Assembly: GCA_965216315.1 (NCBI GenBank)
Contig: CBDCFN010000015.1
Span: forward strand, 160,001 to 224,000
Origin: a bacterium
GTDB lineage: Bacteria > UBA10199 > 2-02-FULL-50-16 > JAJFLM01
DNA: 64,000 nt
Direction of reading: 5' to 3'
The position numbers were made by a program, and so were the translations under genes. The notes beneath the pieces are model-generated. The model was not told where the DNA came from. It saw only the letters and a program-made list of their open reading frames with translations, and ran no database searches. This document shows, piece by piece, positions 128-60,498 of the stretch. Every line of letters begins with the position of its first letter. Positions within the stretch are counted from its first letter, which is position 1.

Positions 128-569
128 GGAAGTGGGCCGATAAGCCGGGTTCTGTCTCCGCCGCAGGCAGATGATGATCATTTATCTGGGACGGCCATTA
201 CTGACCGCCTCAAGCATCCTACCCATCCTGGCGAAAGAGGACTTTGTGAATTCCGCAAAGCCTTCTTAACTTGGCCGGACCGACCTCAAACCAGAACCTA
301 TTTGGACTTGCATCCCGTGGGGTTTAGCTGATTTCACTACAGCATTGTTTCACAAACTGAAAGCACAGCTTCCAGTTTGCTAAAGTCATGGGGCGAGAAA
401 ACTCTCTCCCCCCTGACAACCCCCCATCGTGTTAGCAATGGGGCAATCTGTACATACTTTCTGTTCCACTTTCCGTCGCCTCACGGCGCCCGGGAGTTAC
501 CCGGCACGGTGTCCTGTGATGCCCGGACTTTCCTCCCCATCTCTCGGGGCGATCATCTGGCCCACTTCC
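128..569 (-). ncRNA. rnpB: RNase P RNA, apparently lacking P13/P14 and carrying an insertion in P12
   Basis: Minus strand has GAGGAAAGTCCGGGC, GAAAGTGGAACAGAAAG, CTAAACCCCAC..GCAAG and ACAGAACCCGGCTTAT. The ends GGAAGTGGGCC/GGCCCACTTCC pair as P1. Confidence 0.95.
347..435 (-). repeat. Double-hairpin repeat family A, copy 1 (inside rnpB P12)
   Basis: CGATGGGGGGTTGTCAGGGGGGAGAGAGTTTTCTCGCCCCATGAC..GCAAACTGGAAGCTGTGCTTTCAGTTTGTGAAAC; homologous to 3725-3808 and 60499-60584. Confidence 0.85.
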
Positions 570-3724: not shown

Positions 3725-3808
3725 GTTTCACCAACTGAAAGCGCAGCTTCCAGTTTGCTCTAGTTAGGGGCGAGAATCCTCTCTCCCCCTAACGACCCCC
3801 ATCGTTAG
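3725..3808 (-). repeat. Double-hairpin repeat family A, copy 2 (directly after the dnaG stop)
   Basis: CTAACGATGGGGGTCGTTAGGGGGAGAGAGGATTCTCGCCCCTAAC..GCAAACTGGAAGCTGCGCTTTCAGTTGGTGAAAC. Confidence 0.85.
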
Positions 3809-5584
3809 TTAACCCCCGATTAAAAGCCTATTATGCTCCGTCATCAGCTCTATGACGCGACCGGTATCGGCCTCAGCCTCGGCCTTTCGAAGCTGGCTCG
3901 CCAAATTCTGTCGTTGCGCCACGAGATGTTGGCGCTGCAAGCGCTGTCGACAGGAAGTCACCAAATCTTCCGCTTCCCCGGCGTCAACGCTTGAATCAGA
4001 CAGGAGCAGTTCGGTCAGTTCCTGACTCAAACCCTCGTCTGCCAGCCCCCCCAGGATTTCGGCAGGCGACCGTCCTTGGTCCAGGGCCGCCTGAAGGCCA
4101 GGCCACAGCCCGCGTAGGACCGTATGCTGCCAATCCCCGGCTTCCAGCTCGTCACGAAGGGCCGCAGCCCCTTCCACATTAGATAAAACCGCTCTTAAGA
4201 GGTCTCGTTCAAAGGGAGTGAGACGCACGCCCTTATGACGCCGAGCGTCAATATCATCGGCCGGTGCCTGTACAAAGTTGCGTCCTCTGTGCCCTAGAGC
4301 CGTTATCTCACGCCGGATCACCGCCTCCGTAAGGCCTAATTTTGACGCAAGTCTCTGAATATACAAGCCTTTTTCGACTTCTTCGACGATGCGCGCTAAC
4401 TGAGGCACGAGCTTACGGGCCGCCTGGACCTTGCCGACGTTGTCTGCGGGGCTCTGGGCCACCACTTTATCGATAAAATAATCCATCAATGCGGGTGCCG
4501 CCAGGAGTCCCGCCCCAAAATTTTCCCGGCCCTCGGTGCGGATAAAGCTATCCGGATCCTCCCCTTCGGGCAGGGAAAAAATGCGCGTCGGAATCCCCAG
4601 TGGGCTCGTCGTCTCCAGGGACCGCCAGGCCGCCTTGAGGCCCGCCTGATCCCCATCAAAGATCACGACGAGTTCTTGGGAGTGGCGACTGAGTCGTTTG
4701 ACCTGGTCCGCGGTCAACGCGGTACCTAAAGGGGCAACGGTATGAGTGAATCCATGCTGCGCCAGGGCCAGGACGTCCATATAGCCCTCAACAATCAAGG
4801 CCTGCTGGGCTTCGCGCAACGATGTCCGCGCCTCGAAGAGACCATAGACCTCACGCCCTTTGTGATACAAAGGCGATTCCGGCGTATTAAGATATTTGGG
4901 TTGTTGGTCGTCGCTGAGACTCCGCCCGCCAAAGGCGATGAACTGACCCGCACTGTTGCGGATGGGAAATATCAAGCGCCCCCGAAAAAAATCAAAATAG
5001 TGACCATCATCCCCGCGACGTAATAGGCCGACCTTTTCAGCCAGTTCCAGGGGAACCTTTTTTGACTCAAGATAGCGTGCGAGTTCACGGCCACTCGATG
5101 GGGCAAAGCCAAGCAAAAAATGCTGCGCCGTACGCGCTTCGATGCCCCGTTGCTTTAAGTAGTCCGCTGCCTGCCGACCCGAACCGCTCTCATCGTGGAG
5201 TTGATTAAAATAGAATTCGGCGGCCAGGTGATTGACGCGCGCATACCGCTTCTTAAGCTGGAGCGATTGGGTCTCATCATTGCGACCGTCAAAGCGAATG
5301 TCCACGCCGACTCGCTCGCCAAGCGCTTGCACCGCCTCCACAAAGGAGATGCCTTCAAACTTCATTAAAAAAGTGAAAACGTTTCCGCCTTCTCCGCAGC
5401 CAAAGCAGTGAAAAATCTGCTTATCGGCATTGACCATAAAAGACGGCGTCTTCTCAGTATGGAAAGGGCAGAGACCCTTATGGTTGCGCCCCGACTGCTT
5501 GAGAGGCAGATACTCCGAGACAAACGCGACGATATCGACGCCTTCGCGGATCTTTTCCAGCTGTTCGTCTGGAATGAGGCCCAC
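3809..5584 (-). CDS. dnaG: DNA primase
   Basis: Zinc finger CPFHTEKTPSF/CFGC, KYLNTPE, TOPRIM motifs VEGYMD and FDGDQAG, and DPD. Confidence 0.97.
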   Translation of the reverse strand: MGLIPDEQLEKIREGVDIVAFVSEYLPLKQSGRNHKGLCPFHTEKTPSFMVNADKQIFHCFGCGEGGNVFTFLMKFEGISFVEAVQALGERVGVDIRFDGRNDETQSLQLKKRYARVNHLAAEFYFNQLHDESGSGRQAADYLKQRGIEARTAQHFLLGFAPSSGRELARYLESKKVPLELAEKVGLLRRGDDGHYFDFFRGRLIFPIRNSAGQFIAFGGRSLSDDQQPKYLNTPESPLYHKGREVYGLFEARTSLREAQQALIVEGYMDVLALAQHGFTHTVAPLGTALTADQVKRLSRHSQELVVIFDGDQAGLKAAWRSLETTSPLGIPTRIFSLPEGEDPDSFIRTEGRENFGAGLLAAPALMDYFIDKVVAQSPADNVGKVQAARKLVPQLARIVEEVEKGLYIQRLASKLGLTEAVIRREITALGHRGRNFVQAPADDIDARRHKGVRLTPFERDLLRAVLSNVEGAAALRDELEAGDWQHTVLRGLWPGLQAALDQGRSPAEILGGLADEGLSQELTELLLSDSSVDAGEAEDLVTSCRQRLQRQHLVAQRQNLASQLRKAEAEADTGRVIELMTEHNRLLIGG

Positions 5585-20766: not shown

Positions 20767-20863
20767 GGAAAAGGCATCATAGCAGGGCCGGCTTGATTTG
20801 CAACCAAAGGGGGATTAGGGAGGATTGGCGAGACTTTTTGGCTAATTTTGCAACTATATAGAT

Positions 20864-23627: not shown

Positions 23628-23635
23628 AACAAATT

Positions 23636-23725
23636 AAATCCCCCTTTATCCCCCTTTACAAAGGGGGAGATAACGGTTCCCATTTGGTATCCCTCCCTTT
23701 GACAAAGGGAGGTTAGGAGGGATTT
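23636..23725. repeat. REP-like repeat family B, inverted pair
   Basis: AAATCCCCCTTTATCCCCCTTTACAAAGGGGG ... CCTCCCTTTGACAAAGGGAGGTTAGGAGGGATTT, lying between two permease genes. Confidence 0.8.
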
Positions 23726-37240: not shown

Positions 37241-38827
37241 ATGCTGGCCCGGCCCGTCGCATTTGTTTCCATTATTCTTGTTTTCCTAGCGTTTATTTCC
37301 TGCACCCAACAAGCCACTCAACCTCAGCAAGGTGGGATTCTGCGCTTAGGCAGCTTTCATAAACCGACCGAGATCAATCCGCTCACCACTGACTCGAGCA
37401 TCTCGGCCAACCTATTAGACCTCATCTTTGACAGCCTGGTTCGATTGGATAGTGAACAAAACATTGAGGCCGAACTCGCTAAACGCTGGGAGGTCTCTCC
37501 GGATGGTCTCCAGTGGACCTTTTACTTGCGCCCGGACATCGTGTTTCATGATGGCACTGCACTAACAGCCGAGGATGTTAAATTTACCTATGATCATATT
37601 ATTAACAGTCATCGGGGTGCCTATACCGTCTATTTTCAGTTTGTTAAAGAGGTCCGTGTCCTCGATACGCATACGGTGCAAATCAGTTTATCTCAATTCG
37701 ACAACGTGTTGTGGACCGGATTGGCCTATGTGGGCATTGCCCCCAAACATTTACTCGCCAAACCCGCAGCAAGCGCCCAATTCAACCAACATCCTATCGG
37801 TAGCGGCGCCTACCGTTTTGTCCGCCGCACGCCTCAAGAAATTATTCTAGAGGCAAACCAAAACTATTACCAACAGCGCCCTTATCTCGATCGCATCGCC
37901 ATCGTCATCTTGCCAAGTCAGGGCGCCGTCTTGAATCATCTGATTGCCGAGCAACTTGATATGGCGTTTCTATTGAATCCAGAAGACTATGGCGCCCTCA
38001 ACCAAATCCCTTCCATTAAAATCTATAATAATTGGTATCCTTTTTTGTACCTCCTCACCCTCGACAACCGCAATCCACTCTTTCGCTCTACAACCAACCG
38101 TCGGCTGCTCAATCAGGCCATCAACAAAGAACAAATTATTCAACGCCTCCTCAAGGACCAAGGGGAGATTGCCGCCAGTACTGTCCCGAGTAAAAGCCCT
38201 TTTTATAATGCCGCAGTGACCCCTTACCCTCATGACCCAAAAGGAGTCGCAAAAATGTTGGCCAAAAGCGGCTGGAAAACCCACAACAAGGACCACATCC
38301 TGCGTAAAAACAATCGTTATTTTGAATTTACCGCTTATGCGATGGAAGGGCATAGTATGGAAGAAAGAATCTTACTTAATGTTCAAGAACAATTACTCCT
38401 CCTCGGCATCAAAATGAACATTACCGTTCTCCCCTTCGATCAATATATAAAGAAAATATTTCGCGAACAGCATTTCGATGCAAATTTGATTTTTTTCGTT
38501 TTTCGAGATTTTTACGGAAACAATTCTAATATATGGGATTCCCAGCAGATCAAAAAGGGCATCAACTATTTATCGTATGCAAACCCTGAAATTGACCGCC
38601 TCTTAAAAACAATTCGCTTAGCGCGTTCCAAGCCCGATCAAATCGCCGCACTCAAAGAATTCCAAAGAATCATCCACGACGACCCTCCCGGTATTTTTCT
38701 CTTTTGGCGCAACATGCCCATTGCCGTTCACAAACGCTTCCGCGGCATTCCTACAGAGCAGATGAAGTCTCTGCGCGATCTTGTGCATGTTTGGGTGCCG
38801 AAGGAGGAGCAGATTTCTAAAAATTGA
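37241..38827 (+). CDS. Orphan peptide-binding lipoprotein (ABC family 5 SBP)
   Basis: Lipobox FISC, INPL, LRPDIVFHDGTALTAEDVKFT and PIGSGAY; no adjacent permeases; start uncertain (37202/37226/37241). Confidence 0.88.
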   Translation: MLARPVAFVSIILVFLAFISCTQQATQPQQGGILRLGSFHKPTEINPLTTDSSISANLLDLIFDSLVRLDSEQNIEAELAKRWEVSPDGLQWTFYLRPDIVFHDGTALTAEDVKFTYDHIINSHRGAYTVYFQFVKEVRVLDTHTVQISLSQFDNVLWTGLAYVGIAPKHLLAKPAASAQFNQHPIGSGAYRFVRRTPQEIILEANQNYYQQRPYLDRIAIVILPSQGAVLNHLIAEQLDMAFLLNPEDYGALNQIPSIKIYNNWYPFLYLLTLDNRNPLFRSTTNRRLLNQAINKEQIIQRLLKDQGEIAASTVPSKSPFYNAAVTPYPHDPKGVAKMLAKSGWKTHNKDHILRKNNRYFEFTAYAMEGHSMEERILLNVQEQLLLLGIKMNITVLPFDQYIKKIFREQHFDANLIFFVFRDFYGNNSNIWDSQQIKKGINYLSYANPEIDRLLKTIRLARSKPDQIAALKEFQRIIHDDPPGIFLFWRNMPIAVHKRFRGIPTEQMKSLRDLVHVWVPKEEQISKN

Positions 38828-38871
38828 ATCCCCCTTAATCCCCCTTTACAAAGGGAGGCTAGTAGGGATTT
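38827..38871. repeat. REP-like repeat family B
   Basis: AATCCCCCTTAATCCCCCTTTACAAAGGGAGGCTAGTAGGGATTT at the edge of an AT-rich segment. Confidence 0.75.
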
Positions 38872-43150: not shown

Positions 43151-44016
43151 TGCACACTCCTTTGCATCACACCCGGGAAATGGGCTAAATCCACATCAAA
43201 GCTATGGACTGGCACACCACCCGCGCTTACATGTGATGCCTCAATCCCCCCAAACGAAACGATCCCGATACCGGGCAAAGAACCCGGAGGGATCAAGCGA
43301 ACACTAACCTGACTTTGTTCGCCGTTATCTAAATCGCGAACCGTAAATGTATGCCGCCCCAGCGCGAGCGTATCTGGCGCCATTGTGAAGGTACCAAGGC
43401 TTATTGACGGTGAAATAACTGAATCTCCCAAGGAAACATCTAAGAGTACGTCGCTACTGCCCTCGGTGGCATCATCGATCTCAAGACGTCCCCCCGGCTC
43501 ACCGACACCGAGTAATTTAAGACGGTTTACGATAACGCGATTACCCGAACGCAAGTTCGTAAATAGTGGGACTGTGTTGAGCGACACAACGATGGGTTCG
43601 GCATTGTCTTTATCAATCGTAACATTCATGATCTGCTTGCGCCGAACCACCATTCCTTCTGAATTGAAGGCCTCGACCAAGAAAGTCCGTGCGGTACCAT
43701 CCGGAAGTTCATTAAGTTCCGTCCCGGTTGAATCAGCATCAAGATTAATGACCACGGGTTCTGCTAAATCCTCACCCGTCACGGTAACGACAAAGCGCAC
43801 GACACGTTGAATTTCGGGTAATTGCTCGACAGATAATCCAGCCGGACTGAGCGCATTTTCAATAATGAGATCGATGTTGACGTTTTCGTGGCGCGTGCAT
43901 GCAGTGCTAAGAAGAAGCAACACAGTCAATAAAATCCCCCTCAATCCCCCTTTGCAAAGGGGGAGGTGCCGGTGGTCCAAAATTACGCCCTTCTCTTTAT
44001 CAACGAAAAATGACAT
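43147..44016 (-). CDS. Hypothetical lipoprotein with Ig-like/beta-rich domains
   Basis: LLTVLLLLSTAC lipobox; start ATG 44016 or TTG 43980 (the ORF-track start at 44136 overlaps the upstream gene). Confidence 0.7.
   Translation of the reverse strand: MSFFVDKEKGVILDHRHLPLCKGGLRGILLTVLLLLSTACTRHENVNIDLIIENALSPAGLSVEQLPEIQRVVRFVVTVTGEDLAEPVVINLDADSTGTELNELPDGTARTFLVEAFNSEGMVVRRKQIMNVTIDKDNAEPIVVSLNTVPLFTNLRSGNRVIVNRLKLLGVGEPGGRLEIDDATEGSSDVLLDVSLGDSVISPSISLGTFTMAPDTLALGRHTFTVRDLDNGEQSQVSVRLIPPGSLPGIGIVSFGGIEASHVSAGGVPVHSFDVDLAHFPGVMQRSVQ
43931..43965. repeat. REP-like repeat family B within a signal-peptide coding region
   Basis: AAAATCCCCCTCAATCCCCCTTTGCAAAGGGGGAG; reads LPLCKGGLRGI on the minus strand. 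Confidence 0.75.
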
Positions 44017-45426: not shown

Positions 45427-45552
45427 GACTGGGCGACAGATACAAATGAATAGGAATACGTTGGTATTATTGAGGATTTATTACGTCGGGCCCGAACCAG
45501 CTGATACTCATCAGGTGACGACAAGTTTCATTTTGAGACGGTGGGGTTTCAA

Positions 45553-45954
45553 TTAGGTCCGTGCTTTGAGCGCCTCGATCTCTCGGTCGTGATAGGTCAG
45601 CTGCTCCGCGAGGCCATCAAATTTGCTGTCCAAACGATCAACTTTATTATCTAAACACCCAACTTTTCGGTCTAAATGCTCAACTTTATTATCCAAACAC
45701 TCAACTTTTTCTTCAAGGCTCCCAATTCTTTGCGCATTGGCTTCAATCGCCTCGCCATTCGCTGCAATGGCCCGGCTGTTATGCCGTACGGCAAGATTGA
45801 GTACTTCTATCTTTTCATCTAAGCGATTATAGCGCACATCCACCTCTTTCAGGATATCGGTCTTAAACTGTTCCTGACGCTCAATAACAAGCTGAAGCTG
45901 AGATTGCATATGTTCCAGCAGAATAAGTTGTCTCGAATCATGCGTATCTGACAT
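45553..45954 (-). CDS. Coiled-coil protein with tandem heptads
   Basis: LEEKVEC-LDNKVEH-LDRKVGC-LDNKVDR-LDSKFDG (21-bp repeats); GGAGGA SD. Confidence 0.7.
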   Translation of the reverse strand: MSDTHDSRQLILLEHMQSQLQLVIERQEQFKTDILKEVDVRYNRLDEKIEVLNLAVRHNSRAIAANGEAIEANAQRIGSLEEKVECLDNKVEHLDRKVGCLDNKVDRLDSKFDGLAEQLTYHDREIEALKART

Positions 45955-46061: not shown

Positions 46062-46294
46062 GTTAAATCTGCCCCTTAACTACATAAAACTCATCACTTT
46101 TTAGAGCTGCTAAATCATTGATCATTCAGGCAGGGTTTTATGTTGAGACGGTCGAGTTTCAATTAAATACCCCTTAGATAACGGTCCCAAATAGAGTCCC
46201 TCCCCTGCGTAAAGCGAGGCTTGGAGGGAAGTTGCCGCCAATTTCCCCCACAATTTCAACGCCCTAGCGCCGGGGCCCAAAATCGACAAAATCC

Positions 46295-57977: not shown

Positions 57978-58315
57978 TGACGCATAGCAATAAAAGCCAA
58001 TAATAGAGCGGCTTTTTCGAATTCTTATAAACACGCTGCTGGTGATATACTGAGGATTAACTGTGGATAAGTCCCATCTTGGACAAATTCGTATCCATAA
58101 AAAATCCTCTTAAAAATATATCAATTTAGTCATTAATCCCCCGAGTAAAATGCACACGGCATGCCAACCACTTAGTGACGCTATCTTACTGAAATAACTG
58201 CCTAGAGATCAGATCTTGTATCCTCACGGGAACAAACACCGTCTCAAATTGCGTCGGAAGCGTTTCATTTTGAGACGGTTTGCAAGTCTGCCGAAATAAA
58301 CTATAAATACAGCCT

Positions 58316-60456: not shown

Positions 60457-60498
60457 TTATACCTTTACGGACGCGTCAAAGAGCCGGGCATGCTCGTC
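60457..60498 (-). pseudogene. Duplicated, synonymously recoded 3' end of dgt (DEHARLFDASVKV*)
   Basis: 34/42 nt identical to 60585-60626; all 8 differences are at third codon positions. Confidence 0.85.

Follow-up and report, generated by a model that had tools for sequence, protein, structure and literature searches.

Repeats in RNase P RNA genes (rnpB) are already known. In heterocyst-forming cyanobacteria, Vioque is said to have described in 1997 the STRR repeats, a genome-wide repeat that lengthens helix P12 of the RNA. STRRs are tandem heptamers; the repeat described here, hereafter repeat A, is likewise a genome-wide repeat found in P12, but as a single dispersed two-hairpin unit. Rickettsia palindromic elements (RPEs) have been reported from the genes for tmRNA and for M1 RNA, the RNase P RNA (Ogata et al. 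2002, as cited in Delihas 2008, PMC2229807), with counts given in PMC1458961 and PMC1166351. Like repeat A, RPEs are a dispersed, non-coding, palindromic repeat that is mainly intergenic and has one copy within the RNase P RNA gene; they are thought to be neutral, and the available portions of PMC2229807, PMC1458961 and PMC1166351 name no mobilising enzyme. Their host belongs to another phylum, and the comparison made here is one of published descriptions. Repeat A differs from RPEs in its asymmetry, its two hairpins and its fixed 3' end, in that half of its copies adjoin a tRNA or tmRNA gene, and in its repeated, independent entry into rnpB. In Thermodesulfatator indicus, the RNase P RNA became 87 nt shorter when its P12 was replaced, and in vivo it loses about 70 nt by excision (Goessringer et al. 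2023, PMC9945441). As at our locus, some 90 extra nucleotides lie in P12 of a type A RNA and the closest relative lacks them (PMC9945441); unlike here, excision was demonstrated and the host also has HARP. The origin of the insert as a repeat is demonstrated for our locus and is not stated for T. indicus in the available parts of that paper. What we add to this background is the tree-supported, repeated colonisation of rnpB by one repeat family, together with a polarity of the repeat's ends at tRNA genes.

Islands that integrate into tRNA and tmRNA genes restore the end of their target gene. Such islands are the subject of Islander (PMC4383910) and resemble repeat A in that some of its copies sit between duplicated ends of a tRNA or tmRNA gene; the repeat, however, has no integrase or cargo, comes in units of 85-200 nt, and is found at 5' ends as often as at 3' ends and also at the ends of protein genes. 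Small hairpin repeats at gene ends are further represented by REP elements with RAYT, of the GTAG and CGTC families (Di Nocera et al. 2013, PMC3733652), and by SRM/NTS repeats with Ssn nucleases (Chenal et al. 2025, PMC11893778). As described in the available parts of these papers, they share with repeat A the folding as single-stranded DNA and the orientation by a short unpaired tail, whereas repeat A is longer (85 nt), has no GTAG/CGTC end tag and is accompanied here by no repeat-flanked RAYT or GIY-YIG gene. Neither the repeat A family nor its polarity at tRNA ends is described in the full-text literature searched (subscription papers and supplements lie outside it).

The host gene lies in the first kilobase of the window (the whole stretch of DNA analysed, 64,000 nt), downstream of dnaG, rpoD, a tRNA gene with a CAU anticodon, a zinc-ribbon gene and rnhA. 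It matches the Rfam model RF00010 over its full length (Infernal, 224.6 bits against a cut-off of 100, model positions 1-367 of 367), is the sole such match in the 98%-complete, 2.96-Mb genome, and has each of CR I, II, III, IV and V located, aligned and intact. P13/P14, a canonical type A feature, is missing, as it is in 63 of the 82 parsed RNAs of the class (90 RNAs were taken, namely 88 class rnpB and two from metagenomes, of which 8 were unparsed); such loss has been termed 'not unusual' for CPR RNAs (PMC8172020). Because rnpB is single-copy, the genome encodes RnpA, and HARP-type protein-only RNase P (PF08745) was found in none of the five genomes searched, this one included, the RNA is probably needed by its host, which is the sense in which we call it essential. 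Across the class, the distribution of P13/P14 is patchy (19 RNAs with it and 63 without) and mixed even inside family f12 and the window's order, and two distinct CR II variants occur among the RNAs that lack it. The P16/P17 region of the window's rnpB (190-310) is also lengthened, and 39 nt of it are missing from a related RNA contig of run X5.

Coordinates of the features of the rnpB locus and of repeat A in the window, and helices of rnpB entered in four genomes
Feature	Position	Strand or orientation	Basis or remark
rnpB, RNase P RNA, type A without P13/P14	125..568	-	RF00010 full model, single copy, CR I-V
CR II (J11/12), upstream of P12	453..464	-	Motif common to relatives
P12 basal stem, 5' strand (5 + 4 bp)	444..452	-	Fold of P12 segment
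Local stretch with predicted pairing to the G-rich 5' arm of the repeat, forming the insert's third hairpin	436..443	-	MFE structure
Repeat A copy in P12 apex: G-rich 5' arm, hairpin 1, linker, hairpin 2, short 3' tail	347..432	-	HMM E 2.2e-23; CM 97.8 bits
Hairpin 1 of repeat A, most conserved part between lineages	385..417	-	Alignment A1, pair counts
Hairpin 2 of repeat A, lineage-specific, missing in some copies	352..380	-	8/13 pairs with changes on both sides
P12 basal stem, 3' strand	338..347	-	Fold of P12 segment
CR III, leading straight into P11/P10 (P13/P14 absent)	331..337	-	Rfam alignment, relatives, motif location
Intergenic repeat A copy at dnaG stop codon, before rpoD	3725..3809	-	blastn, HMM
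Stranded duplicate of the final 14 dgt codons, beginning at the 3' end of the repeat	60457..60498	-	41-nt duplication
Intergenic repeat A copy directly after dgt stop codon	60498..60584	-	blastn, HMM
rnpB entry, window's genome (G000)	P12	sense	
rnpB entry, G031	P12	sense	104 nt between basal arms
rnpB entry, G080	P16 region	sense	
rnpB entry, G063	P9	antisense	Congener G062: short P9, RNA otherwise nearly identical

The initial annotation had placed a dispersed repeat at 347..435, inside P12 of RNase P RNA, and both the helix and the coordinates proved right: the full-length RF00010 alignment sets about 90 nt as an insertion within P12, distal to its base, and the copy is bounded at 347-432 by the HMM and at 344-438 by the covariance model. 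CR II and the P5/P7 junction lie 146 nt apart here, compared with 69 nt in G001 and 58 nt in G002, two relatives of the same family with a short P12, and 58 nt also in two metagenome contigs, which makes the P12 segment 88 nt longer than the shortest form. Between the basal P12 arms lie 105 nt; across 38 RNAs sharing this P12 type, the span ranges from 6 to 138 nt with a median of 22. This set was used for lengths only, as the pattern that selects it fixes three basal positions and renders pair-type counts circular. Contigs of two samples (runs X1 and X4, from one study that is possibly the assembly's own source) bridge both junctions of the insert with zero mismatches, so the insert is not an assembly join and an artefact is ruled out.

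Folded alone, the P12 segment has a bulged base of 9 bp, in which 452-444 pairs with 347-338 (probabilities 0.67-1.0), and beyond it three hairpins. When the entire RNA is folded unconstrained, a calculation that ignores pseudoknots, the same base reaches a pair probability of only 0.32-0.34, and it is therefore the comparative evidence that carries the P12 assignment. The annotated position between the P12 arms stands; in one detail the predicted fold departs from the annotation, in that the CATTG/CAATG pairing assigned to those arms gives way to a pairing of 443-436 with the repeat's G-rich arm (-10.7 kcal/mol, a value reached by 3.6% of random intergenic flanks).

As a blastn query, positions 336-450 retrieve the copies after dgt (E 5.5e-22) and dnaG (E 1e-18), in agreement with the homology to these two intergenic repeats that had been read from the sequence. 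An HMM finds 30 copies of repeat A in the 2.96-Mb genome at E<1e-5, with a single match at E 0.48 in the reversed-genome control. The unit is about 85 nt long and asymmetric, its G-rich arm lying 5' and its short tail 3' in the rnpB orientation. In 22 aligned copies, 93.9% of the cells of the hairpins are paired, and two-sided changes occupy 59 cells (shuffles give 17.8, slid controls 6-22), although the test leans in favour of the structure, which was derived from the same alignment. Hairpin 2 of G031 has a different sequence. None of the three window copies has a gathering-level match in Rfam (best, E 4.4 on the dnaG copy). Terminal inverted repeats of the MITE type are absent: the ends of repeat A in alignment A1 are unlike each other and its palindromes are internal. 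A constant short target-site duplication was not detected either (direct repeats of 4-5 nt in 6 of 25 copies versus 4.2 expected from shuffled pairs, p 0.25), and the 4-nt repeat flanking the rnpB copy may be due to chance. By inspection, the consensus of alignment A1 carries no GTAG or CGTC tag at a hairpin foot.

We found repeat A by covariance model in 40 of 93 class genomes, which represent the whole phylum in the set examined, with at least 291 matches when the best 45 candidates per genome were scored. The family relatives G001 and G002, as well as G003 of the same order, have no copy, bearing in mind that these repeat-free assemblies are fragmented and 80-93% complete and may have dropped repeats. 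G031 holds five more copies of its own variant (blastn). Of the 45 loci found by a pattern scan, 38 have Nitrospiria or Nitrospirota in their title, and a metagenome scan for close rnpB relatives gave three matches, two being rnpB and one a chance match. Viral contigs (by pattern), plasmids and phages returned no match to repeat A.

The element resides inside rnpB in 4 of 88 class genomes (the search set also took the two metagenome rnpB), and in L067 a fifth copy adjoins the 3' end of rnpB. In an RpoD tree of 30 of the 60 genomes with a match, the window's genome groups with G001 (support 99/96) and, with G002 added, at 100/100, while G031 falls in a different clade; a joint clade of the window's genome and G031 is rejected (p-AU 1e-54). 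RpoD is 75-76% identical to that of the family relatives, and the empty site is deduced from these relatives at the family level, the closest genomes compared. The rnpB copy of the window's genome is 85% identical to its closest intergenic copy in the same genome but 58% identical to the P12 copy of G031, and every rnpB copy has its nearest match, at 85-90% identity, within its own lineage. Because the trees separate the two P12-bearing genomes and each rnpB copy resembles its own lineage, the sequence comparisons indicate that the element entered rnpB at least four times. Outside the window's genome, three entries occur among 260 matches, against roughly 0.3-0.6 expected under uniform non-coding placement (p 0.003-0.025), an expectation that is rough and assumes the non-coding share. 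In the repeat tree, 28 of 28 copies of the window's genome form one clade (SH-aLRT 99), with the rnpB copy nested among intergenic ones. Since the family relatives are short in P12 and repeat-free, the rnpB copy is nested and the entries affect several helices, the comparison supports insertion into rnpB as the direction of events, not an origin of the family there. The multi-copy family, the short P12 of the family relatives and the independent entries likewise support the initial suggestion that the ribozyme received a structured repeat in a loop able to tolerate it.

The reverse direction, with the family derived from this RNA, had also been considered from the start; the family would then have been born from the P12 segment and have spread outward from a highly expressed RNA. 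Such an origin would agree with the sense orientation of the element in three of the four rnpB cases and with the fact that half of the copies neighbour tRNA genes, whose transcripts are RNase P substrates, but we regard it as extremely improbable: the family occurs in 40 of the 93 class genomes and also in another phylum (Nitrospiria), yet occupies P12 in only 2 of 88 rnpB; the remaining rnpB copies sit in other helices, one of them antisense; the genome has no reverse transcriptase; and the copy in the window is not basal among its relatives but has a mean identity of 0.73 to the other copies, like its neighbours. It is less improbable, though still quite unlikely, that a single old insertion in the common ancestor of the window's genome and G031 was lost in between and homogenised by gene conversion in both keepers. 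The two genomes are indeed alike in helix, orientation and arm-to-arm length (105 and 104 nt). This history, however, requires several losses, as the other 10 genomes of the 12-taxon clade lack a P12 copy, and it sits poorly with P12 flanks that differ and with a hairpin 2 that in each copy is that of its own lineage.

For 15 of the 30 copies, a tRNA or tmRNA gene is at most 8 nt away, compared with 48 of 903 large gene junctions that touch such a gene (p 5.5e-12). Eight of these 15 copies adjoin 5' ends and seven 3' ends, and in 15 of 15 the 3' end of the element points towards the gene (p 6e-5); one of the 15 overlaps its gene through over-extension of the HMM. One further copy lies in an rRNA spacer. 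Among the best matches in 29 genomes of relatives, 10 adjoin a tRNA or tmRNA gene with the same polarity. In five better assemblies of relatives, where 30 of 38 copies were examined, 11 of the 30 face a tRNA or tmRNA gene with their 3' end and four more have a duplicated tRNA piece there. Among the 38 Nitrospiria-titled loci, none has a tRNA gene within 40 nt, so the tRNA preference is not family-wide.

Clear target-type duplications within 150 nt of a copy are confined to 4 of 30 copies (dgt, C16:335029 and two at tRNA-Ala), and flanking duplications, where present, begin at the element's 3' end. Duplicated gene ends bracket some copies, at two tRNA-Ala genes and tmRNA here and at Ser, Trp and Arg tRNA genes in relatives. 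At dgt, all eight differences between the duplicate and the working gene end fall at third codon positions, which points to a dgt end brought in from a related lineage. The rnpB copy shows no long flanking duplication (p 0.28), and a homology-assisted route is therefore not supported for it. A second repeat of about 77 nt, repeat B, has 39 copies in the window's genome (for example C16:1708371-1708452), and its 3' end, like that of repeat A, adjoins gene ends. Back-to-back composites of the form B-spacer-A occur at tRNA-Ala (two), tmRNA, the rrn spacer and tRNA-Leu, the two at tRNA-Ala carrying tRNA-end duplications of 40 nt or longer.

Our search for a mobiliser covered the neighbouring genes of copies at 104 loci, where we found no transposase and no gene family recurring beyond shared housekeeping loci. 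Within the genome, no reverse transcriptase was found and no RAYT or GIY-YIG gene is flanked by the repeat: the single Y1_Tnp gene lies 21.7 kb and a 101-codon GIY-YIG frame 27.8 kb from the nearest copy. Five tyrosine recombinases were matched, none within several kb of any listed copy.

Repeat A is a multi-copy family with co-varying hairpins, independent entries into rnpB and a fixed 3' end at stable-RNA genes. On this basis, we are confident that a non-coding, non-autonomous hairpin element of about 85 nt spread in this lineage and inserted into the P12 apex of a working rnpB, where it is a tolerated passenger. In canonical type A RNAs, distal P12 contacts L13; with P13/P14 lost, and hence L13, the tip of P12 would be free. 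The insert would be transcribed with rnpB and fold on its own into a three-hairpin branch on the intact 9-bp base of P12, directed away from the catalytic core. RNase P activity should survive, the branch being peripheral and no P13/P14 being left to dock on distal P12. As for how the element travels, a weaker proposition is that it moves as single-stranded DNA whose 3' end is joined by an enzyme acting in trans, either HUH-like or a host nuclease combined with recombination. A carried piece of the flanking gene end may often permit integration by homology, and strongly transcribed, structured loci (tRNA, tmRNA, rrn, rnpB) may be favoured or may simply tolerate the element best. More speculatively, and in our view rather unlikely, repeat A and its partner B would constitute an undescribed protein-free class of mobile elements whose fixed 3' end is joined, on either strand, to the feet of stable-RNA genes by a structure-reading enzyme in trans. 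Gene ends would then often be brought from a related lineage, the rnpB insertions would be predictable targeting (the targets being 5' and 3' ends of tRNA genes, tmRNA, the rrn spacer and outer helices of RNase P RNA), and the element would possibly be cut from the RNA.

The fate and role of the insert in the RNA can be considered separately. Metatranscriptome runs X5 and X6 contain rnpB from short-P12 relatives only, with the conserved parts covered, and are uninformative on the insert. Most likely, the insert would stay in the mature RNA; trimming by host RNases is a distinctly less probable outcome. That it is an intervening sequence removed from the transcript, so that the RNase P RNA would consist of two pieces as in T. 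indicus, is compatible with insertion and is possible, albeit doubtful. The T. indicus expansion occupies the same helix and has a similar size, and the P12 of G030 (about 460 nt) holds a 23S_rRNA_IVP (PF05635) ORF (E 1.8e-32), so true IVS-like elements occupy the P12 site in this class. Here, in contrast, the insert has at its base a bulged stem of 9 bp that ends at a branch point and not a long duplex, the intergenic copies give no hint of a processing signal, and an IVP ORF, which an IVS often has, is lacking, 88 nt being too short to hold one. Co-option of the insert as a structural stand-in, making the specificity-domain contacts that P13/P14 does not provide here, is in our view highly improbable. 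In its favour stand the absence of P13/P14 from this RNA and a pairing between flank and G-rich arm that, in a post hoc comparison, is stronger for the four copies within rnpB than for 57 others (p 0.0075, n=4), which hints that the fold is under selection. Flank pairing of intergenic copies, however, is likewise above random (p 0.0097), and most of the 63 parsed RNAs that lack P13/P14 have a short P12 (median segment 50 nt), so no replacement is required.

Read as a tolerated passenger, the insert offers a phylogenetically controlled case of a selfish repeat that colonised a probably essential ribozyme several times. The entries map the helices that accept about 85 nt in type A RNAs without P13/P14, namely P9, P12 and the P16 region, and repeat insertion becomes a probable origin for otherwise unexplained P12 expansions such as the excised one of T. 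indicus. The strict end polarity at tRNA genes provides a handle on how bacterial repeats without an enzyme of their own move.

Several further oddities of rnpB were observed in the class, where P12 also holds inserts unrelated to repeat A. In the 813-nt rnpB of G030, the IVP ORF in P12 (L010:1776-2147) lies between long, heptamer-like inverted arms and represents an IVS-type element; G054 and G023 have similar P12 arms without the ORF. Four RNase P RNAs of family f3 (L024, L030, L034 and L035, from G033, G019, G012 and G004) lack CR II and CR III, a plain hairpin replacing J11/12-P12-J12/13, while other f3 members keep both; the loss of this module has been called highly unusual (PMC8172020). 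In the rnpB of G076 (L170), P19 holds an antisense repeat-like unit with hairpin 2 of the G031-type element and a B-like architecture. The tips of P12 and P9 in the rnpB of G001, G017 and G067 (L014, L022 and L185) are short REP-like palindromes unrelated to repeat A.

The window contains other repeats as well. A third palindromic repeat, with a C-rich arm, a short loop and a G-rich arm, is intergenic at 20805-20843, 23632-23725, 38822-38871, 43916-43973 and 46202-46232. A 31-nt repeat is present three times (45525-45555, 46135-46165 and 58241-58271) and resembles sequence upstream of the Y1 transposase gene (C16:1214000 region). Finally, about five units of a 21-nt tandem repeat at 45618-45722 lie within an ORF on the minus strand (45553-45954).
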